This document shows, piece after piece, positions 15,646 through 28,871 of a DNA stretch of 53,735 nt. Each line of letters starts with the position of its first letter. Position 1 is the stretch's first letter. Origin of the DNA: Faecousia sp. (GTDB lineage: Bacteria; Bacillota; Clostridia; Oscillospirales; Oscillospiraceae); assembly GCA_045129455.1 (NCBI GenBank), contig JBGVJN010000015.1, positions 1 through 53,735 of the forward strand, written 5' to 3'. The translations under genes were made by a program, and so were the position numbers. The notes under the pieces were generated by a model. It worked only from the letters and a program-made list of their open reading frames with translations, was not told the origin of the DNA and searched no databases.

Positions 15646-17085
15646 ATGAAGAGATTGATCGCGATCCTCGCAGTTCTGGCACTGTGCCTGAGCGTTCTGC
15701 CCATGGCTGCCTTTGCTGCGGATGCAACCTACTATGTGGCCGGCAGCTTCAACGACTGGAAAGCCGACGGCACCGCAATGACCAAGGAAGGTAATCTTTG
15801 GAAGTGCACTGTTAACATGGCTAAGGGCAAGCATGAGTTCAAGGTTACCAATGGTACTTGGAATGTGTCTTATCCCAGCGCCAATTACGCTGTGGAAGTG
15901 ACCGCTGCTTGTGATGTGACCATTACTTTTGATCCCAACAGCAAGGCGATTACTGTCTCCGGCGCTGGCCTGGCCGGTCCTGCATACTATGTGGCCGGCA
16001 GCTTCAACAACTGGAAAGCCAACGGCACCACAATGACCAAGGAAGGCAATGTTTGGAAGTGCACCATTAACATGACTAAGGGCAACCATGAGTTCAAGGT
16101 TACCAATGGTACTTGGGATGTGGCTTACCCCGGCGAAAATGTGAAGATCTCCGTTGAGACTGCCTGCGCTGTCACCATCGCATTTGATGAGACTACCAAG
16201 AAGATTACCGTTACCGGCAGCGGCCTGGCCGGCTCTGTGAAGGCTCCCGCTATTGAGTACATGGAAGTTGTGGGTGCAGGTGTAGAGGGTCTGACCTGGA
16301 ATCCCGGCTCCTCTGTGAAGATGACTAAGACCTCTGAGGGCGTGTATGTTGCTGAGTTCAATGGCGTTGCCAAGGATACCCAGCTGAGCGTCAAGTTTGC
16401 TGCCAACGGCAATTGGAACGACTACAATATCGGTGGCACCTACAATGACGACGGCACTGTTTCCGCAGTTATGTCCGGCAGCAGCACCGACATCAAGATC
16501 ACCGCTCCCTATGCCACTACCAATGTGAAGCTGACCCTGGATCTGACCCAGCTGGCTTATGCAGCCGGCACCGGCATCTCCGTCAAGGTCGAGCTGATCA
16601 ATGCCGATCCCAACACTGGGGACGACCAGGAAGAGGACAAGGAAGAAGAGAAGAAGCCCGAGGTTGAGATCACCGAGGTCACCGTTTACGCACAGGTTCC
16701 CGCTGATTGGGGTACCCCCAAGATCTGGGCCTGGGACGATGCCGGCAATGGCCTGTCCACCGTGGGTTGGCCCGGAAACCTGGATATGACCCAGGGCGAA
16801 AACGGCTGGTGGAGCATCAAGATCCCCGTGAGCATGACCAATGTGATCGTCCTCAACAGCGACGGCACCAAGCAGACCGTTGACCTCAAGGTCGAGAAGG
16901 AAAAGATGGACATCTGGGCCGCTGTTGGCGCTGCCGGTTCCGACGGCAAGTTCTCCGCGGATCTGGATTACACTGTCCCCAAGACCGGTGATGAGACCGC
17001 TCTGGTGAGCGCTGCCATCGTGATGGCTCTGGCTATCGGCGCTACCGCTCTGGTGCTGACCAACAAGAAGAAGTTCGGCATCTAA
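15646..17085 (+). CDS. Sortase-anchored non-catalytic starch-binding protein (X25-like repeats plus CBM26-like domain)
   Basis: Signal peptide; YVAGSFNxW..EFKV repeats; IWAW..WPG..GWW..QTVDL domain; VPKTG + TM helix + KKK tail. Confidence 0.75.
   Translation: MKRLIAILAVLALCLSVLPMAAFAADATYYVAGSFNDWKADGTAMTKEGNLWKCTVNMAKGKHEFKVTNGTWNVSYPSANYAVEVTAACDVTITFDPNSKAITVSGAGLAGPAYYVAGSFNNWKANGTTMTKEGNVWKCTINMTKGNHEFKVTNGTWDVAYPGENVKISVETACAVTIAFDETTKKITVTGSGLAGSVKAPAIEYMEVVGAGVEGLTWNPGSSVKMTKTSEGVYVAEFNGVAKDTQLSVKFAANGNWNDYNIGGTYNDDGTVSAVMSGSSTDIKITAPYATTNVKLTLDLTQLAYAAGTGISVKVELINADPNTGDDQEEDKEEEKKPEVEITEVTVYAQVPADWGTPKIWAWDDAGNGLSTVGWPGNLDMTQGENGWWSIKIPVSMTNVIVLNSDGTKQTVDLKVEKEKMDIWAAVGAAGSDGKFSADLDYTVPKTGDETALVSAAIVMALAIGATALVLTNKKKFGI
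15730..16233 (+). repeat. Intragenic tandem duplication, 255-bp period
   Basis: TACTATGTGGCCGGCAGCTTCAAC at 15730 and 15985. Confidence 0.9.
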
Positions 17086-18808: not shown

Positions 18809-19042
18809 GGTAAAACCTCATTACTGCTTGATAAGGGTATACTAGCAAATTCACAGGGAAAAGTCAAAGGGATTCGACTGCAGCGCCGAACCCCAACATA
18901 TTTACTATAGCACGGACAAATGTCCGCGTCAAGAGGAAAATGGTCAAAATAACGGAAATCATGGAATCTCACAAAATGAAATAGGTTACTTTGTACAATA
19001 TTCCGGGTTGAAATTGGAAAAAACTTGTGCTACATTATAGTC

Positions 19043-19543
19043 AGAAAGGGTGATACCGATGTACACGTAAAACCAAAGGCCGAAGCTTAACACCCAGGAA
19101 GAAGAAAATCAACCATATCAAATACGAACGCGGAATATTAAGATAATTTGTAAGAAGCAAAGATCAAAAGATCAGAAGAAAACAAAATATAGTAATATAA
19201 GCAATGTAAACGATAAGGTTAAGCTTGAGGCCACAGTACAGGAGACCCGAAAAGCTCAAAATTTGTCATTGAGCTGAAGCGGCAGACTTATTTCAGAAAA
19301 ACAGTTCCGACATACAAGAACGTCTCGCTCAGGAGATATGATGAATCAAGCATACGAATCGGAAGTAAGCTATGGATCGGGATGATGGAAGAAAGGGTCA
19401 ATAAAAGCCGCAATCTACGAAAGAGAGGTAACCAGGATGTTAGATAATAAGAACGAACAGAAATGACCCTTGGCTGTGATGGTATCGAAAGGATACAGCA
19501 GTCAAGGGTCATTTCTTTTTATGCGCCGAAGGGCGCTTTTTTT
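19043..19543 (+). ncRNA. Candidate large structured non-coding RNA with a 3-codon leader ORF (M-Y-T)
   Basis: TTGAAA-N17-TACATT promoter with extended TG; no long sense ORF; long-range helices; two terminal hairpins with U tracts. Confidence 0.55.
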
Positions 19544-19547
19544 ATGC

Positions 19548-20492
19548 TCAAATGCCGTGAGAGGCGAAGAAATCTCCCATGACCTTCAGATATTCCTCCG
19601 GAGCTGCCGGGAAGCACAGACCGTGACCGGCTCCGCCGACCAGCACAAGGGTCTTGGGGGCAGGGCAGGCATCGTGATTTTCTGCCGTCATTTGGCAGGG
19701 AACAAAGTCATCGGCATCACCGTGAGCAAAGAACACCGGGATCCTGCACTTTTTGACGGCTTCCAACGGGGAAAGCTCCTCCAAGTCAAAGCCGCCGAAG
19801 ATCAGGCCTGCCAGACGGACGAAGGGATACAGGAGTTTGGAAGGCAGCTTCATATCCCGGATCACCTTGCTGATGATGTCCCTGGCGGAGGTATAGCCGC
19901 AATCGGCGATGATGCCCACCACATTTTCCGGAAGCTCCATGCTGCCGGCCATCAGCACTGTGGCAGCGCCCATGGAGATGCCGGTGAGAATGAATTTGCG
20001 ACCCGGGAAGGTCTTTACCGCCAGGTCCACCCAGCCCAGACAATCGTGGCGCTCCTTGATGCCGAAGGTGATCACATGACCATCGCTGCGACCGCAGCCA
20101 CGCTGGTCCACCACCAGGGCGCTGCGCCCCAAAGCGAAGCAGCGCTGCACGCCGCCGCACAGATCCCGCTGGGCGATCCCCCGGTAGCCGGGCATCATGA
20201 TCTCGATGGGACTGTCGGGAGAGCATTCATAGTATTTTCCCCGGAGGGTCAGACCGTCGAAGGAGGTGATCTCCAGCTCCTGACAGGGAAGCTTGGCGGT
20301 CTCATCGGCCCAGGCACGCATCACATCATGGTAAGGTTCGTAGATCTCTCCGGGTGGAAGCGTAAATTCCCCCGAAGCATCCTCAGGCGTGCGCTTGGCA
20401 TAAAAAGCCATCCGGTAGCAGATATAGCAGATCAGAAGGATCAGCACGGCGATGCCCGCAAGGACACAGACCGCAGGGATGAAGTATTGCAT
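19548..20492 (-). CDS. Alpha/beta hydrolase
   Basis: GISMG nucleophile elbow, HGDADDFVP and AGH motifs. Confidence 0.9.
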   Translation of the reverse strand: MQYFIPAVCVLAGIAVLILLICYICYRMAFYAKRTPEDASGEFTLPPGEIYEPYHDVMRAWADETAKLPCQELEITSFDGLTLRGKYYECSPDSPIEIMMPGYRGIAQRDLCGGVQRCFALGRSALVVDQRGCGRSDGHVITFGIKERHDCLGWVDLAVKTFPGRKFILTGISMGAATVLMAGSMELPENVVGIIADCGYTSARDIISKVIRDMKLPSKLLYPFVRLAGLIFGGFDLEELSPLEAVKKCRIPVFFAHGDADDFVPCQMTAENHDACPAPKTLVLVGGAGHGLCFPAAPEEYLKVMGDFFASHGI

Positions 20493-20628
20493 ATGTTTTT
20501 TCGCCTCCAGGGCCAATTATAGCGCCGGAGAAGAGAAAATGCAACGAATATGGTCGCTGCGCAGCGGATTTTTCTTGCCAATTGGTGGAATTTAGGTTAT
20601 ACTCGCAGGAGATTGTGAGGTAGGATCC

Positions 20629-21894
20629 ATGGAAGTGAATTATAAAAACAAGAAAAGTTACAATACGGCGAAATATCCCATCCGTCAGCCTCGATTTTTG
20701 ACGGGATTGATCTGGTGTTTGTCCCGCTTTGTGCTGATCGGCAAGAAATACAAAGTGGAGAAGATCCATATGGAGGGGCTGAAGCCTCCGTATCTTCTGC
20801 TGAGCAACCACCATTCCTTCATCGATTTTGAGCTGATCGCTATGGGTACCGGTATGCAGCGGGTAAACAATGTGGTGAGCATTGACGGTTACTATCTTCG
20901 TCCCTGGCTGATGGAGTTGATCGGCTGCATCGGCACCCGGAAGTACACCACAGACCTGCATCTGGTCAAGTCCATCAACCGTGTTCTAAAGCGTGGTGAT
21001 GTGCTGTGCATGTACCCGGAGGCGAGATATTCTCCCTGCGGTGTCACCTCCTTTATCCCCGATTCTCTGGGAAAGCTGATCCGCATGAACAAGGTGCCGG
21101 TGGTGGTGGCCATCCACCATGGCAACTATCTGCACAGCCCTTTCTGGAACTTCCGCAATAAGCGCAAGGTGCCGCTGCACACCACCATGACCCAGATGCT
21201 GACACCGGAGCAGATCGCCTCCATGTCCGTGCAGGAGATCAATGATACCATCCGCAAGGCATTTGCTTATGATGAATATCAGTACCAGCGGGACAACGGA
21301 ATCCGCATTACCGAGTCTTACCGGGCCCAGGGGCTGCATAAGATCCTGTATCAGTGCCCTCACTGCGGCAAGGAGTTTTCCATGGATTCCAAGGGCACAG
21401 AGCTTTTCTGCAATGCCTGCGGCAAGCGCTGGGAGCTTCGGGAGGATGGTGCGCTGCAGGCGCTGGAAGGCGAAACAGAGTTTTCCCACATCCCCGATTG
21501 GTTCTGCTGGGAGCGGGAGCAGGTGCGCGCCCAGATCCAGCGGGGAGAGTACCGGTATGAGGATGAGGTGCAGGTATTTTCGCTGCCCCGGTGCTGGAAA
21601 TTTGAGAAGCTGGGCAAGGCCAAATTGACCCATGATGAGGAAAACGGCTTCGTACTTACCGGCCATTATCGGGGACAGGACTACCGCATTCAGCGCATTC
21701 CCGCCCGGATCAACAGCCTGCATGTGGAGTATGACTTCGGCAAGCTGCGGCCCATCGCCGATTGCTTCGACATTTCCACAGAGACGGATTCCTTCTACTG
21801 CTACCCCAGCCAGCCCAATGTGCTGACCAAGCTGGCCTTTGCCACCGAGGAGCTGTACCTGCGCAGCCAGAAGAAGGAACTGACCAAAGTTTAA
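20629..21894 (+). CDS. Lysophospholipid/glycerol-phosphate acyltransferase (PlsC-like) with Zn-ribbon extension
   Basis: NHHSFID and YPEA motifs; CPHC..CNAC. Confidence 0.85.
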   Translation: MEVNYKNKKSYNTAKYPIRQPRFLTGLIWCLSRFVLIGKKYKVEKIHMEGLKPPYLLLSNHHSFIDFELIAMGTGMQRVNNVVSIDGYYLRPWLMELIGCIGTRKYTTDLHLVKSINRVLKRGDVLCMYPEARYSPCGVTSFIPDSLGKLIRMNKVPVVVAIHHGNYLHSPFWNFRNKRKVPLHTTMTQMLTPEQIASMSVQEINDTIRKAFAYDEYQYQRDNGIRITESYRAQGLHKILYQCPHCGKEFSMDSKGTELFCNACGKRWELREDGALQALEGETEFSHIPDWFCWEREQVRAQIQRGEYRYEDEVQVFSLPRCWKFEKLGKAKLTHDEENGFVLTGHYRGQDYRIQRIPARINSLHVEYDFGKLRPIADCFDISTETDSFYCYPSQPNVLTKLAFATEELYLRSQKKELTKV

Positions 21895-21922
21895 CGAAGA
21901 TCGATAACAGAATGGAGCCAAT

Positions 21923-23101
21923 ATGACAAAATTACTGCTTCGTCTTTTTGTAAAGGACTATAAGAACAAGGATAAGCCCCGGGTGCGCAGCGGTATCGGC
22001 AAGCTGTCCGGCGCTGTGGGCATCGGCTGCAATCTGGTGCTGTTTGCCTTGAAACTGCTGGTGGGTACGATCTCCGGCTCGGTGTCCATCACGGCGGATG
22101 CTATGAATAACCTTTCCGATGCTACCAGCGCCATCGTGACTTTGGTGGGCTTCAAGCTGGCGGAAAAGCCTGCCGATGATGACCACCCCTACGGCCATGC
22201 CCGGTATGAGTACCTGTCCGGCCTGGCGGTGGCGGCAATGATCATCGTCATCGGCTTTGAGCTGGCCAAGACCTCTGTGGAGAAGATCTTCCAGCCTGCT
22301 GCCGTGGAATTTACCCTTCCTGTGGCGGTGGTGCTGCTGGGCTCCATCCTGGTCAAGCTGTGGCTGAGCCTTTTTAACAGTTCTTTGGGGAAATATATCG
22401 ATTCCTCTGCGCTGCTGGCCACTGCGGCAGACAGCCGCAACGATGTGCTGGCCACCGCGGCGGTGCTGGCGGCGGCCCTGATCGAATGGCTTACCAACTG
22501 GCGCATCGACGGCTTTATGGGTCTGGGCGTTGCCTTGTTCATCCTCTATAGCGGCGCTATGTTGGCGAAAGAGACCATCAGCCCTCTGCTGGGCGAGACT
22601 GCCAGTCCCCAGCTGCGGGAGCTGATCGTAGGGATCGTCAGCAGTGAGCCGAAGGTGCTGGGTTACCACGATCTGATGGTCCATGACTACGGCCCCGGGC
22701 AGCGCTTTGCCAGCATGCATGTGGAGATGGATCAGAAGGAAGATCCGCTGCTTTGCCATGAGCTGATCGATAATCTGGAGCGCCGCTGCCTCCAGGAGCA
22801 TAATGTACATCTGGTGATCCACTACGATCCCGTGGTCACGGGAGACGAGGAAATGGATCGGCTGAAGGCCGTGGTGGAGCAGGTACTGCGGGAAATGGAC
22901 AGCCAGATCTCCATCCATGACTTCCGCATGGTCCGTGGTACGGGCCACACCAACCTGATCTTCGATATTGCCCTGCCTGCCCAGTGGATGCCGAAGCAGA
23001 AGCAGGTGAAGCAGGCGCTGGATGCCGCGCTGGCGGAAAGGGAAGAGGGAAAGCTCTATACTGTGGTCACCTTCGACCTGGCGACCTTGAACCAATCATA
23101 A
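21923..23101 (+). CDS. Cation diffusion facilitator transporter
   Basis: ADAMNNLSD, HPYGHARYEY, DSRND and HDYGPG motifs. Confidence 0.93.
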   Translation: MTKLLLRLFVKDYKNKDKPRVRSGIGKLSGAVGIGCNLVLFALKLLVGTISGSVSITADAMNNLSDATSAIVTLVGFKLAEKPADDDHPYGHARYEYLSGLAVAAMIIVIGFELAKTSVEKIFQPAAVEFTLPVAVVLLGSILVKLWLSLFNSSLGKYIDSSALLATAADSRNDVLATAAVLAAALIEWLTNWRIDGFMGLGVALFILYSGAMLAKETISPLLGETASPQLRELIVGIVSSEPKVLGYHDLMVHDYGPGQRFASMHVEMDQKEDPLLCHELIDNLERRCLQEHNVHLVIHYDPVVTGDEEMDRLKAVVEQVLREMDSQISIHDFRMVRGTGHTNLIFDIALPAQWMPKQKQVKQALDAALAEREEGKLYTVVTFDLATLNQS

Positions 23102-23179
23102 TTTTTCTGGAAAATGTCCGCAATGTGTTGACAAATGACCGCGCGGGAGTTATAATGTGCCAAACTGAATACCGCAAAC

Positions 23180-23452
23180 AAACCGTTGATGCGGAGATAA
23201 CGGCGATGATGCCATTACAGAGAGCCCGTGGTGCTGAGAGTCGGGTATGAAACAAGTCGTCAAATGGACCGCGGAGGGCGCAGCCAAAGGCTTCGGCTCA
23301 GTATGCTGCGACGCAAGGCACGCGTCAGTTGCCGGGGATATGCAGGTATCCCGCAAAGCGCGCGGCACACAGCCGCGAATCAAGGTGGCACCGCGGATGA
23401 ATTCTTCCGCCCTTGACAGATCCTTCGTCTGTCAAGGGCGTTTTGTTTTTGG
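23180..23452 (+). promoter_or_regulatory. T-box riboswitch, Trp specifier
   Basis: AGAGA and GCTGAG stem I motifs; TGG at 23265-23267; AAGGTGGCACCGCG 23382-23395; terminator CGCCCTTGACAGA/TCTGTCAAGGGCG. Confidence 0.92.
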
Positions 23453-23483
23453 CAGAGCCATCACATCATTTGGAGGTAACACT

Positions 23484-24701
23484 ATGAACTGCGGCAATGT
23501 AAATTTTGATACCTATCTGAAAAACTATCCGGATAACAACGGTTACTTCGGAAAATACGGTGGCTGCTACATCTCTCCGGAGCTGAAAAATGCCATGGAA
23601 GAGATCACGGAAGCCTATTTTACCATCTGTAAATCTACCAGATTCATCAGTGAGCTGCGGCGCATCCGCCGGGAGTTCCAGGGTCGTCCCACACCCATTT
23701 CCCACCTGGAGCGGCTGTCTGCATCCCTGGGCAATGTGCAGCTGTATGCCAAGCGTGAGGACCTGAACCATACCGGCGCCCACAAGCTGAATCACTGCAT
23801 GGGTGAGGCGCTGCTGGCCAAGTATATGGGCAAGAAGAAGGTCATTGCTGAGACCGGTGCCGGTCAGCACGGCGTGGCGCTGGCAACGGCGGCTGCCTAC
23901 TTCGGTCTGGAATGCGACATTTACATGGGCAGCGTGGACATCAAGAAGCAGGCACCCAATGTGGCAAGAATGAAGATCCTGGGCGCCAATGTGATCGAGG
24001 TCACCGAAGGCCTGGCAACGCTGAAAGAAGCTGTGGATGCTGCCTTTGCCGCATATGCCCGGGAATATAAAGATTGCATCTACTGTATCGGCTCGGTGCT
24101 TGGTCCTCATCCGTTCCCCATGATGGTCAGAGATTTCCAGAGCGTTGTGGGCATCGAGGCCAGAGAGCAGTTTGTGAGCATGACCGGTGAGTTGCCCGAT
24201 GCAGTGGTCGCCTGCGTGGGCGGAGGATCCAATTCCATGGGTATGTTCAGCGGCTTCCTCAATGACCCGGTGGAGATCTACGGCGTGGAGCCGCTGGGCA
24301 GAGGTCCTGCGCTGGGCGACCATGCTGCCAGCCTGAAGTACGGCACAGAGGGCATCATGCACGGCTTCAACAGTATCATGCTCAAGGACGAAAACGGCGA
24401 TCCCGCGCCGGTATATTCCGTGGCCAGCGGCCTGGATTATCCCTCTTCCGGTCCGGAGCATGCCTTCCTGCATGACATCGGCAGAGTCAAGTATGATGTG
24501 GCCGATGATGAGGAGACCATCGATGCCTTCTTCAAGCTTTCCCGGATGGAGGGCATCATCCCTGCCATCGAAAGCTCCCATGCGGTGGCGTACGCCATGC
24601 GCCTTGCCAAGACGATGGGAAGAGGCTCCATCCTTATCTGCCTGTCCGGTCGCGGCGACAAGGATATGGACTATATCATTGAAAAATACGGCATCCGCTG
24701 A
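23484..24701 (+). CDS. trpB: Tryptophan synthase beta subunit (stand-alone)
   Basis: [26 protein letters not shown] and LSGRGDKD motifs. Confidence 0.96.
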
Positions 24702-24865
24702 GATGTTTTGCCGCGCTGCTTATGCAGCGCGGCTTTCTTTTTGTGTCGATAAGCGTCATTTTTCGACACTTGCACATGCTCCTCACTGAAAAGTGATTCG
24801 ACAGAATTTTAGGTTTTTCACACCTCTTGGCATGATACTCTGGGATCAAAAAAGGAGTTTTTACC

Positions 24866-25156
24866 ATGCTGGGAGACAGGATCGCACACTTGAGAAGAGA
24901 AAAAGGCTACACCCAGGCGCAGCTGGCACAACTGCTTCACATCAGCGCCAGTGCCTTGGGGATGTATGAGCAGGGGCGAAGGATACCGGGTGTTGAGACC
25001 CTGGTAGAGCTTTCCGCACGGCTGCAGGTTTCGGTGGATTACCTGTTGACGGGAAACGATTATGTTCCTTTCGAGAAAGCGGGCAGTGTGCCTGCACAGT
25101 GCTGCTGCGGCTGCCAAAGAAGAAGCTGCGGCAAACGATCGCTCGACAATTTCTGA
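24866..25156 (+). CDS. XRE-family HTH regulator with a Cys-rich tail
   Basis: TQAQLA..SALGMYEQGRRIP..VSVDYLL. Confidence 0.85.
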   Translation: MLGDRIAHLRREKGYTQAQLAQLLHISASALGMYEQGRRIPGVETLVELSARLQVSVDYLLTGNDYVPFEKAGSVPAQCCCGCQRRSCGKRSLDNF

Positions 25157-26191: not shown

Positions 26192-26625
26192 GCCAGATTC
26201 GAGTAAAGAAACTTTCCGAAAAGGCGATCCTGCCGACCTACGGCACGCCTTATGCCGCCGGTGCGGATCTTTATGCCTGCCTGGAGTCGCCGGTGACCAT
26301 CCAGCCGGGGCAGACCGCCTGGATCTCCACCGGGATCGCCATGGAGGTGCCGGAGGGCTGCGCGGGCCTCATCTATGCCCGCAGCGGCATGGCCTGCAAG
26401 CGTGGTGTAGCGCCTGCCAACAAGGTGGGTGTGGTGGACAGTGACTACCGTGGTCCGATCACCGTAGTTCTGTATAACCACGGCAATGAACCCCAGACCA
26501 TCTGCCATGGGGAGCGGATCGCCCAGATGATCATCACCCCTGTGCTGACACCTGCCTACATGGAGGCTGACGAACTGACGGATACGGTCCGGGATGCCAG
26601 CGGCTTCGGTTCTACAGGTAAATAA
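26188..26625 (+). CDS. dut: dUTP diphosphatase
   Basis: AGADL, RSG, GVVDSDYRG, RIAQ and GFGSTG motifs. Confidence 0.96.
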   Translation: MSQIRVKKLSEKAILPTYGTPYAAGADLYACLESPVTIQPGQTAWISTGIAMEVPEGCAGLIYARSGMACKRGVAPANKVGVVDSDYRGPITVVLYNHGNEPQTICHGERIAQMIITPVLTPAYMEADELTDTVRDASGFGSTGK

Positions 26626-26691
26626 ATAGATCGCCCTGCCGGGATCGGCAGGGCGATTTGTGTAGTCGGGATGAAAGTTGGCACATACGGC

Positions 26692-27930
26692 TTAGCCGGA
26701 AGTTTTGACTTTCTTCTGCTTCCATACGCTCCAAAGCCGGAAGCTGGTGGAGATGAGCAGAATGCTCACGGCGATCACGCCGGCGATGGCAGCGGTATGC
26801 ATGCCTTGCGAGGCAAACAGGTCCATATCTCCACGAACCGCATGGCTCATGGTATAGTACACACCGGCACCGGGGATCAGCGGGAAGATGGAGACCACCA
26901 GATAGGAGGTGGCGGGGTATTTACGCACTCTTGCCATGATCTCGGAGTACACCGAGGCGATCAGACCAGCCCAGAAATAGGCGGAAAGATCATCGCCACC
27001 CAACTGCAGCACCAGACAGTATGCTGACCAGGTGATCACACCGCCCAGTACACAAAGGATCCCGCCGGCGCCGTGGATATTGAAAAGCACCGAGAAAGCA
27101 AGGCAAGCAAGGGCACAGGGCAATGCCTGGGCAAGGATACTGTAGCTGACATTGGGATCGCTGACAGGCGCGCCCCAGAAGGTGTTGGCGCAGCCCCAGG
27201 CTGCGGCAGTGCCTAAAGATATGGCGGCGGCGATCAGCAGCACCTGCACGATCCGATTCACACCGGAGTTGGTGTCACCGTAAATAATATCCCGCATAGC
27301 GTTGGTAAACAGAAGCCCCGGTACCAGCTGCATCAGTGCGCCGATGATCACAGCGTCGGGATTTCCGGCAACACCAAGGGCGGCAAAGGCATAAGCTGCC
27401 AGTGCCATGGGGAAGGATGCGGCAATGGTGCGGAAGAACAGGTTTGCGCCCAGCTGATCGGCGATCTGTCCCAAAATACCTACCACGAGTCCGCAAATAC
27501 CGGAGCAAAGGGCATCCACAAAGGATCCGCCGAACAGAAAACAGAAGCCGAAGGCGGCAAAAAAATAGGCAACGATATTGACTGCGGCGGGGTAAGTACG
27601 CTTGCTGCGCTGCACCTCTTCCAGCCAGCTGCGGGCGATCTCCGGCGCCGGCTTTTGGGCACAGATGCGGCGGCTGAGGGCGCTGTAGCGCTCCAGGGCA
27701 TCCAGGTCATTGCCGTGGCTGCCGATGCGGCGCATCCGGGTAAGAGGACGGCCGGATACCGGCTCAATGCTGATATGCAGGCAGTTGGGGATGGCGAATA
27801 CCTCTGCTTCGATCTCATAAGCGCTGAGGATCCGGGTGATGCTTTCCTCCACACGGAAGGTCTCGGCACCGGACATGGCCAGTCGGTAGCCAATGTCGGA
27901 AGCCAGATCCAAAAGCTTGGAATACTCCAT
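26692..27930 (-). CDS. ThrE family threonine/serine exporter
   Basis: GAETFRVEE, LVPGL and PLIPG motifs; two fused halves. Confidence 0.9.
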   Translation of the reverse strand: MEYSKLLDLASDIGYRLAMSGAETFRVEESITRILSAYEIEAEVFAIPNCLHISIEPVSGRPLTRMRRIGSHGNDLDALERYSALSRRICAQKPAPEIARSWLEEVQRSKRTYPAAVNIVAYFFAAFGFCFLFGGSFVDALCSGICGLVVGILGQIADQLGANLFFRTIAASFPMALAAYAFAALGVAGNPDAVIIGALMQLVPGLLFTNAMRDIIYGDTNSGVNRIVQVLLIAAAISLGTAAAWGCANTFWGAPVSDPNVSYSILAQALPCALACLAFSVLFNIHGAGGILCVLGGVITWSAYCLVLQLGGDDLSAYFWAGLIASVYSEIMARVRKYPATSYLVVSIFPLIPGAGVYYTMSHAVRGDMDLFASQGMHTAAIAGVIAVSILLISTSFRLWSVWKQKKVKTSG

Positions 27931-28028
27931 ATACAATCCTCCAAAGGATCAATGATAGCTTCATTGTATCACAGCCCGGGTAAATTACAAGAAGAAAATC
28001 CGCCGGAGAAAACTCCGGCGGAAGAGAT

Positions 28029-28871
28029 TCACTTGCGAACGAACAGGACACCCAGGGTGCCGGGGCCGCAGTGGCAGGAAACGGTGCAGCCTGCCTGGGT
28101 CTCATAGACGGTCTCGAAGTTGCCGTAAGCGTCAATGGCATCCTTGACGGACTTCAGACACTCGTCGTTGACGGGGGTGTAGGTGAGGAACAGCTCATTG
28201 CGGATGATGTCCTCACGGTCGGCCAGGCGGTCCTTCACATAGGCGGCCAGGCACTTGGCATAGGGACCACGGTACTTCTTCACAACGCCCAGCTTGCCGT
28301 TCTTTACTTCCAGGCAGGGCTTCAGATTCAGAAGGTTGGCGCCCAGCGCAGTGGCAGCGGAGCAACGGCCGCCCTTGGCCATATACTTCAGCTGATCCAG
28401 CAGGAAGCTGGCTTCCACACGGAGGGTCAGATCATTGAGCTTGGCAGCGATCTGGTCCAGATCGTCGCACTCCTTGGCCAGGCGGCAAGCCTCCAGGACC
28501 ACAAGACCCTGGCCGGTGGACAGATTCTGGGAGTCGATGACACGGACATTGGGGAAATCCTCAGCAGCGATGCAGGCATTCTGGTAGCTGGAGGAGAAGC
28601 CGGAGCCGAGGCTGATGTGGATCACGCCGTCATATTCGCCGGCATACTTGGCGAACAGCTTCTGGTACTCGTCCACATTGTAGGCGGTGGTGGAGCAAAG
28701 GTCGCCGCCGGCTGCCACATGGGCGAAAATGTCGGCAGGGAAGATGGTCTCACAGTCGGTAAACTGCTCACCGTTCTTGATGACGGTCAGACGGGAAAGG
28801 GTGATATCATGCTCTTTCAGCTGCTCGGGGGAAAGGTCGCAAGTGCTGTCGGACAGGATCTTGATGTTCAT
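28029..28871 (-). CDS. DegV family fatty-acid-binding protein
   Basis: DSTCDL, SSSY, KGGR and HCGPG motifs. Confidence 0.93.
   Translation of the reverse strand: MNIKILSDSTCDLSPEQLKEHDITLSRLTVIKNGEQFTDCETIFPADIFAHVAAGGDLCSTTAYNVDEYQKLFAKYAGEYDGVIHISLGSGFSSSYQNACIAAEDFPNVRVIDSQNLSTGQGLVVLEACRLAKECDDLDQIAAKLNDLTLRVEASFLLDQLKYMAKGGRCSAATALGANLLNLKPCLEVKNGKLGVVKKYRGPYAKCLAAYVKDRLADREDIIRNELFLTYTPVNDECLKSVKDAIDAYGNFETVYETQAGCTVSCHCGPGTLGVLFVRK

Follow-up and report, generated by a model that had tools for sequence, protein, structure and literature searches.

The locus and its transcription

The window, that is the whole stretch of 53,735 nucleotides from Faecousia sp. that was analysed, carries a module of two divergent promoters. 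A divergent SpoU methylase gene flanks it on one side and an alpha/beta hydrolase gene on the other, the latter being convergent as an earlier note, made from the sequence alone, had reported. The features of the module are:

18860..18897, minus strand: predicted tiny RNA (~30-38 nt) with 5' GUUGGG, a 10-bp GC-rich hairpin and an imperfect U tail
18904..18932, minus strand: P2, divergent sigma-A-type promoter (TTGACG, TG, TATAGT), predicted +1 G at 18897
18955..18999, plus strand: inter-promoter boxes, consensus TTCT..TTTTGCACAA and TTTgTACAA, fixed relative to P1
19008..19036, plus strand: P1, extended sigma-A-type promoter, predicted +1 A at 19043
19043..19070, plus strand: cassette 1, an extended imperfect SD at the predicted 5' end and a start-(1-2 codons)-stop micro-ORF (MYT*)
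19071..19418, plus strand: variable A-rich folded spacer with stem D1 (19078-19232), rod D2 (19279-19411) and an apical hairpin (19322-19337)
19419..19466, plus strand: cassette 2 (core), a bulged SD GAAAG-N-GAGGT and the 9-codon ORF MLDNKNEQK* (ORF2, 19437-19466)
19459..19522, plus strand: intrinsic terminator, whose 5' arm runs from nt +23 of ORF2 and holds the ORF2 stop codon
19523..19545, plus strand: second, back-up terminator, outside the family model

This two-promoter architecture is close to certain. The earlier note had placed exactly the promoter (TTGAAA at 19008, TGCTACATT at 19028-19036), the ribosome-binding site (AGAAAGGGTGA at 19043-19053) and the micro-ORF ATG TAC ACG TAA (19059-19070). 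It had the ribosome-binding site serve only this MYT ORF and passed over both the second SD with its 9-codon ORF at 19419-19466 and, at 18932-18860, the divergent promoter that nearly all copies have, together with its predicted tiny RNA. A promoter scan of the window returned 5 sites compared to 2.0+/-1.4 in shuffles, weak evidence when taken alone; P1 is settled because 108/108 copies of the family keep the same -35/17/-10 layout. The 17-nt spacer is thus invariant, TG is found in 103 copies, and the predicted start is an A in 97% of 157 copies. An alternative -10 at 19036-19041 overlaps P1.

The A bias described for the region was recovered (41% A compared to 18-23% in the flanking genes), and the RNA as a whole folds with a z of -4.9, the spacer by itself with -2.1. 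Several helices proposed in the earlier note were predicted with high pairing probability, namely 19078-19091/19218-19232 (0.93-1.0), AGCTCAA/TTGAGCT (0.95) and GCGGC/GCCGC (1.0). The ~125-nt A-rich segment within the first of them was predicted to be largely paired and not an open loop, TTCCGA pairs with 19377-19383 and not with TCGGAA at 19359, and GACCC/GGGTC holds for its terminator copy only, the internal pair (19244/19395) being missing from the ensemble. The terminal stem at 19459-19516 is present (-35 kcal/mol) with 19 bp in place of 18, and the second terminator is, as claimed, a hairpin with a U tract at 19523-19545.

Eight of 23 metatranscriptome-type runs were compared with the window at contig level. 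In the runs of one study (study code P1), contig depth, a poor measure of level, was 19,232-24,900 (X1) and 26,581-28,576 (X2) over the unit, compared to 0-12.5 and 0-88 in the flanks. In runs X5, X6, X12, X7 and X15 (study codes P2, P3, P4 and P7), contigs were confined to 19054-19469 at a depth of 6-40, with little or no contig coverage on either side. Run X19, the kind of which is unrecorded, gave a flat depth of 8-36, and X15 also contained a relative with both cassettes on a single 198-nt contig. Combined, contigs from five studies, which carry neither strand, ends nor true level, demonstrate that a unit of ~480 nt is transcribed. The huge depth comes from one study (X1, X2), the unit's own contigs lying at 6-40 in the other four, and is a strong hint that the long RNA is highly abundant in one setting. 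The family also shows signs of very high abundance in rumen samples, and this unannotated RNA may take a visible share of gut metatranscriptome reads. Among the flanking genes, the highest contig depth in X2 (up to 88) was that of the gene at 15646-17085 (+), which encodes a 479-aa surface protein with, by eye, repeated YYVAGSFN domains and a sortase-like tail.

A family of long RNAs in gut Clostridia

The long RNA belongs to a conserved family of uncultured gut Clostridia that is absent from Rfam and has more than 200 distinct copies. BLAST of the unit against 36 genomes of the same genus gave matches in 27, always at its two ends and never in the middle. A search with a pattern of the 3' part returned 121 loci, mostly labelled Faecousia, Oscillospiraceae and Acutalibacteraceae, with an estimate of ~360 stretches in GTDB. 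With a covariance model, the genome counts of which are floors, the family was found in 18/150 genomes of the order and 13/150 of the class (a few weak hits included) and, at the level of the phylum, in one Clostridia genome plus one weak hit among 150; one hit of the model, L194, is an ordinary gene start. Several copies per genome are frequent, at times in tandem. Plasmids and named phages gave no copy, and four viral pattern searches gave 0, 1, 0 and 1 hits, with two copies in IMG/VR. An IMG/VR contig (L214) carries a minimal copy of the whole module in an integrase-bearing element; the genes seen there by eye are two probable WYL-type genes, a probable exonuclease and the integrase. Two copies in assemblies labelled Bacteroidaceae and Collinsella (L035, L059) are close to the Clostridia copies L036, L116 and L141, and these labels likely reflect mis-binned contigs or transfer. 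Genome G000 contains on more than 20 contigs an REP/MITE-like family of GC-rich palindromic repeats of ~50-130 nt (C65:22615-22672, C23:2573-2626).

Upstream neighbour genes lie on the same strand in 49 cases and on the opposite strand in 51, downstream ones in 52 and 54, and the 207 neighbour proteins fall into 117 clusters of mixed function. Since the neighbours are random in strand and mixed in function, the module is neither a leader nor part of an operon, and it is insulated by terminators on both sides. A leader-peptide attenuator or riboswitch was rejected for want of a co-directional downstream gene of consistent function (52 same-strand vs 54 convergent), which agrees with the earlier note. 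Its view of a stand-alone RNA likewise held, both in the random neighbours and in the contigs confined to the unit. No Cas family was found among 46 neighbour proteins covering all 36 multi-member clusters and a few of the 81 singletons.

The lack of a match to known RNAs was confirmed with the Rfam 15 covariance models at gathering threshold: on the window and 20 loci (nearly all homologues) they returned only a T-box and a tRNA, both outside the module, with sub-threshold miRNA hits on the terminator and no hit on the predicted tiny RNA. The T-box leader (RF00230, 98 bits) lies at 23177-23417 (+) of the window before a gene that by eye is tryptophan-synthase-beta-like. As the note had it, tmRNA and 6S RNA were excluded: ARAGORN found no tmRNA at the locus and a true tmRNA elsewhere in 4/5 carrier genomes, and the fold has no RF00013 match, a separate 6S gene being present in 5/5 carriers (3 above cut-off). 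On the Rfam result, Skipping-rope and DUF3800 RNAs were rejected as well. No description of the family was found in the literature covered; a prior listing is possible in the supplement of PMC5737381 and in files 7 and 8 of that of PMC8040213, of which 8 files had no hit to the motif.

Carriers and non-carriers were compared for two proteins, non-carrier status being a floor with 25-33 candidates scored per genome. HPF is present in 28/35 carriers vs 35/41 non-carriers, and Spo0A in 35/35 vs 39/41. Because carriers keep HPF, the module does not replace protein-based hibernation, and replacement of HPF was rejected; so was a link to Spo0A, on its own counts.

The spacer is the variable part. 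The distance from the predicted start to SD2 is 40-619 nt (median 194), the shortest copies have 45 nt between the start codons, room for two ribosomes, and in some the spacer is ~13 nt. Family-wide it is 37% A with a moderate fold (median z -1.8), often a rod with a covarying apical hairpin (apical pair of D2 C-G in 41 and U-A in 25 of 69, among 247 copies). RNAalifold on a MAFFT alignment gave no consensus structure, and the single-sequence z of D2 had a median of -0.4. The description as a large structured ncRNA was an overstatement, because the large structured middle is dispensable (start-to-start distance down to 45 nt). That the spacer acts as a protein sponge of CsrA or Hfq type, or derives from a decayed gene, is scarcely probable. 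Its A content, the GGA motifs of the window copy and the presence of Hfq are in keeping with a sponge, but a CsrA sponge of the CsrB/RsmY type is excluded, CsrA being found in 0/5 carrier genomes, and in some copies the spacer is down to ~13 nt. Start-to-start distances modulo 3 (40/33/35 of 108) indicate that no frame is kept, against a decayed protein gene.

Two ribosome sites and a terminator

The conserved core of the long RNA is not MYT but the second ribosome site together with its 9-codon ORF, which extends into the terminator. Its layout is an SD GAAAG-N-GAGGT followed by an ATG and eight further codons, and the stop codon lies within the terminator's 5' arm. Among 234 anchored copies, 216 have nine codons and 220 start with ATG; three distant copies have a GTG one codon earlier, and the exceptions in length are whole-codon indels. 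As the first sample had been chosen on the sequence of cassette 2, the counts were repeated on sets chosen otherwise. Of 62 cassettes picked with a 5' pattern, 37 had a called terminator and 36/37 of these an SD-led ORF of 8-11 codons that ends in the terminator arm; among the 26 without an ORF call, 14 had a hit to the 3' profile and 12 had no more than 388 nt of sequence. In the set chosen by the divergent promoter, 29/30 had an SD-led 8-11-codon ORF ending in the terminator arm.

The terminator stem is supported by covariation, with 14/17 pairs changing on both sides and 97.8% of cells paired. The stop codon of ORF2 and its partner are TGA-TCA in 76, TAA-TTA in 46 and TAG-CTA in 10 of 145 copies, the two changing together while a stop is kept. 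In ordinary genes of the same genome that have a terminator, the arm overlaps the stop in only 7/141. A minus-strand ORF of 74 aa (19288-19512) has no SD, and its ATG exists only if the plus-strand stop is TGA.

SD2 is interrupted by a bulge: it is A, C or T in 200/200 copies and G in 1/30 of the divergent-promoter set, and its longest perfect run against the 16S tail of genome G045 is 5-7 nt. The bulged form precedes only 4 long ORFs of the genome vs 236 for AAGGAGG, and the stretch from SD2 through ORF2 is predicted to be largely unpaired. An ordinary gene start at G000:C80:5540-5600 (+; SD, MPDTKTN) resembles cassette 2 over 13 nt of SD plus several codons, probably by chance.

These counts place the start, stop, length and frame of ORF2 under selection, and its residues only partly. 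Codons 2, 3 and 5 change conservatively (L/I/V, D/E and K), which fits a role of the peptide, and two subfamilies, MLD[TNI]K.. and MIEPK.., occur together in G006, G026 and G028. The module could then be a micro-gene whose long RNA is a highly stable mRNA encoding a functional peptide of nine residues, M-[LIV]-[DE]-x-K-x-x-x-K, in two subfamilies that co-occur at times. In favour of this, length is strongly conserved apart from whole codons, changes at Leu2 are mostly synonymous or to Ile/Val and those at Asp3 to Glu, and a rough dN/dS over 27 distant copies is 0.48 vs 1.8 and 2.8 in the other frames. However, a codon model on 154 sequences gave an omega of 0.69 with a lower value in the +2 frame (0.24-0.33), in codons 4, 6, 7 and 8 it is the second or first base that varies most, the rare TTA (third-rarest codon of the genome) is retained, and there is neither a signal peptide nor a recurring modifying enzyme, transporter or receptor among the neighbours. 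The constraint on peptide sequence is therefore weak; we consider the micro-gene rather unlikely and the peptide itself probably incidental.

Cassette 1 is an accessory, optional part. The predicted (unmapped) start falls on the first base of SD1, 15-17 nt before the ATG, and a stop follows within three sense codons in 102/109 copies, all three stop codons being used. The residues vary freely. Among 30 copies chosen by P2 alone, hence independently of MYT, the micro-ORF is present in only 20 and absent or extended in 10. Pairing of SD1 with the 16S tail of an order-level relative is predicted at -13 kcal/mol, and its longest perfect run against the tail of G045 is 5-10 nt (8 in 55/109). Codon 2 of ORF1 is in most cases TAC, which ranks 35th of 61 when codons are counted from the rarest, and codon 3 is A-N-G with N free, AGG in 46/84. 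Read-through of the MYT stop into a 68-codon frame was rejected, this frame not being conserved, as was long-range pairing of ORF1 with the bases before SD2, for which 109 copies show no covariation.

RNase J is present in 5/5 carriers, and by analogy the cassette fits a ribosome roadblock against this enzyme; such 5' SD roadblocks are described for STAB-SD, ermC and hbs (PMC3997798). The family shares with them a strong SD at the predicted 5' end in RNase J organisms, and differs in that its SD carries a start-stop ORF and precedes a non-coding spacer rather than a gene. The same SD with a start-stop cassette (MIY*) lies at G000:C71, ~16790-16850 (-), ~60 nt before the SD of an AT-rich gene, the product of which is probably secreted; cassette 1 is, judging from this copy, possibly a general 5' stabiliser.

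The claim that the RNA engages ribosomes is very likely right in view of this design, the main site being the second SD and 9-codon ORF and not MYT. Among known RNAs, the long RNA works like rreB and resembles RosA, and it belongs to neither. The RNAs rreB and rreR are small mRNAs of Alphaproteobacteria with an extended SD and a conserved tiny ORF, stand-alone and without conserved context (PMC5711450), as are the transcripts here. The rre RNAs have one perfect SD of 16-17 nt leading into a GTG (PMC5711450). The family has instead two interrupted SDs, with a longest perfect run mostly of 6-8 nt where rre RNAs have at least 16 nt of perfect 16S complement, and it starts mostly with ATG and not with a GTG that overlaps the SD. 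It differs further in that the stop lies within the terminator, the spacer varies and a partner promoter faces the other way.

RosA of Bacillus subtilis has SD-like purine tracts and a ribosome-occupied ORF of 7 codons (PMC8216469). The family is likewise a Firmicute RNA with SD-like G-rich regions and a short ORF; it differs in the selected length and stop of the ORF, in copy number and in its divergent tiny RNA, and the module's own genome gave no C-rich partner. In a RosA-like manner, both SD/start regions could pass for the initiation regions of mRNAs and titrate a C/U-rich small RNA. In RosA the 7-codon ORF lies under the key site (PMC8216469), SD2-ORF2 is largely unpaired in the prediction, and Hfq is present in 4/5 carriers. 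We nevertheless regard such a sponge as improbable: no partner RNA was found in the module's own genome (72% complete), a free bulge base suits the 16S tail better than a Watson-Crick partner, and an in-frame stop inside the terminator would not be needed. The best antisense target in the own genome (-42 kcal/mol vs -33 to -38 in 4 shuffles) was rejected as the reverse strand of an ordinary gene start.

The explanation that we favour, tentatively, is that the module makes a decoy mRNA that loads ribosomes, is protected at the 5' end and is under the cis control of its partner promoter P2. A ribosome cycling on the 5' start-stop cassette would keep RNase J from degrading the RNA in the 5'-to-3' direction; this would account for the high level, the optional cassette and its free residues. 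The 3' cassette would recruit a ribosome through a deliberately imperfect extended SD. With the arm starting at +23, this ribosome would initiate on ORF2 without touching the hairpin, and it would dwell there because a stem of 17-19 bp must unwind before the stop. The function would be the act of translation more than the 9-residue product, with ribosomes held or cycled and decay of the long RNA coupled to its own translation. Against a decoy stand the conservative changes at codons 2, 3 and 5 and, by analogy, the growth result with rreB: its overexpression did not slow growth, and ribosomes were argued to far outnumber rreB (PMC5711450).

The purpose of small ribosome-docking RNAs such as rreB is an open question, and the family is a further case of this known, unexplained kind. 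It makes the question testable with a short synthetic cassette, because it offers hundreds of natural variants, minimal versions of ~140 nt and two paralogue classes.

The divergent promoter P2

Conservation extends 110 nt upstream of P1 and includes P2, which in the window matches 10 of 12 consensus positions and in 143/157 copies 10-12 of 12. P2 was found in 137/142 non-redundant copies vs 4.5% in shuffles; conversely, its pattern occurs in 60/120 genomes of the genus, with no hits in the controls, and of 33 sites, 30 lead to a long RNA, one is cut off and two sit in the rpoB leader in antisense orientation. Co-occurrence of P2 with the long RNA thus holds both ways (137/142 and 30/33). P2 and P1 are offset by 77-79 nt in 124 of 157 copies and by 87-89 nt in another 25, a difference of one helical turn, and the extra bases of the longer class fall between P2 and the two boxes fixed to P1. 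In the window copy box 1 is degenerate and box 2 lies at 18990-18998. Box 1 is exact to the DnaA-box consensus in 22/157 copies vs 1.4 when shuffled; the palindromic site of a dimer would fit equally well. When the genome was scanned with its matrix, the hits formed no coherent regulon.

Downstream of P2 come TGTTGGG, then a GC-rich hairpin and then a U tract. A terminator lies no more than 89 nt from the predicted P2 start in 111/157 copies (2% in shuffles), mostly at 25-35 nt. The resulting tiny RNA is predicted only, being too short to appear in contig data. Its GUUG is kept at 89-97% per base even where unpaired, and its hairpin varies with pairing kept; its length, stem start and loop are variable and 46/157 copies have no called terminator. 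The tiny RNA may be made for its own sake and regulated jointly with the long RNA, for instance as a protein-bound 5'-triphosphate hairpin or a pre-tRNA-like minihelix. The kept GUUG and hairpin pairing would agree with this, as would a pre-tRNA-Leu with a predicted GUU leader under the same P2 pattern (L381). The variable length, stem start and loop and the copies without a called terminator argue against it, and the one-helical-turn rule points to DNA geometry and not to an RNA product, which makes this very unlikely.

The tisB/istR and CreTA systems consist of long and short RNAs back to back in an insulated unit, with an SD, a start and a very short ORF, and CreT and the bar minigene are toxic by sequestering tRNA. 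By their likeness, the module could be an RNA toxin-antitoxin or addiction unit, with toxicity residing in the long RNA or its minigenes and the divergent tiny RNA acting as antitoxin. The layout is that of tisB/istR, terminators lie on both sides, the copies are multiple and patchy with shifting positions, one of them in an integrase-bearing element, and ORF1 codon 3 is AGG in 46/84. Still, binding between tiny and long RNA comes out about as strong for non-cognate pairs as for cognate ones (cognate vs non-cognate: seed -10.1 vs -10.1, whole RNA -19.6 vs -19.5), complementary covariation is absent, and an antisense role of the tiny RNA was rejected on these grounds. Unlike type I systems, which have a complementary antitoxin RNA and a small hydrophobic toxin ORF, the family has no hydrophobic ORF, ORF2 being polar. 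CreTA, which lies in CRISPR-cas loci, has an obligatory pair of rare codons after the start; here codon 2 is mostly TAC, the middle base of codon 3 is free and ORF1 is absent or extended in 10/30. The presumed toxin RNA looks abundant, and copies are found on no plasmid or named phage and only two in IMG/VR. An addiction unit thus has little probability.

We prefer to see P2 as part of the control of the decoy RNA. Compared to 109 strong promoters, the predicted +1 is unusually uniform, with G in 95% for P2 vs 39% and A in 97% for P1 vs 42%. Among tRNA promoters, 16/20 have a G at the +1 place of P2 or the next one, and 5/10 hits of the P2 pattern outside the family are tRNA promoters. In B. 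subtilis, promoters starting with +1G fall and those with +1A rise in the stringent response (PMC3113569). The module resembles these classes in its near-consensus promoter with predicted G start and its partner with predicted A start; here the two stand back to back in a fixed phase, and a hairpin is all that the G promoter is predicted to produce.

P2 may, then, serve as a nucleotide gauge, a suggestion that we make with reserve. Starting with G like tRNA promoters, it would make a throw-away hairpin while P1 starts with A. During growth, P1 would be kept in check by RNA polymerase sitting on P2 at a fixed face of the helix, and starvation would lift this restraint; this is proposed because the +1G and +1A classes respond oppositely as GTP falls and ATP rises. 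Against the gauge, the -5T of Bacillus rRNA promoters is not conserved in P2 (T in 35%), and the promoters upstream of three G045 rRNA operons have no G at the +1 place of P2, which does not support a start sequence common to P2 and rRNA promoters. The invariant GUUG could instead be the seed of a trans-acting RNA. The complete chain, in which a dummy stable-RNA promoter gauges GTP and switches on an RNA of housekeeping abundance that parks two ribosomes each, is doubtful as a whole; if true, it would mean RNA-based storing or throttling of ribosomes in slow-growing gut Clostridia.

P2 is kept at whole-turn spacing across families of Clostridia, and in the literature we found no precedent for a divergent promoter at such a spacing whose sole predicted transcript is a terminator. 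As a nucleotide gauge it would be a new regulatory part.

P2-like promoters were also seen away from the module. At L346:1430-1541 and L371 (G570:C70, G009:C54), the rpoB leader contains such a promoter, with the TGTTGGG start, in antisense orientation and head to head with the promoter of rpoB, and similar hits of the P2 pattern were found in G521, G539, G027, G537 and G550; feedback on RNA polymerase synthesis by transcription interference is possible there. Other promoters with an immediate terminator-like hairpin, unrelated to P2 in sequence, lie at G000:C6:412 (+) and C74:6525 (-).
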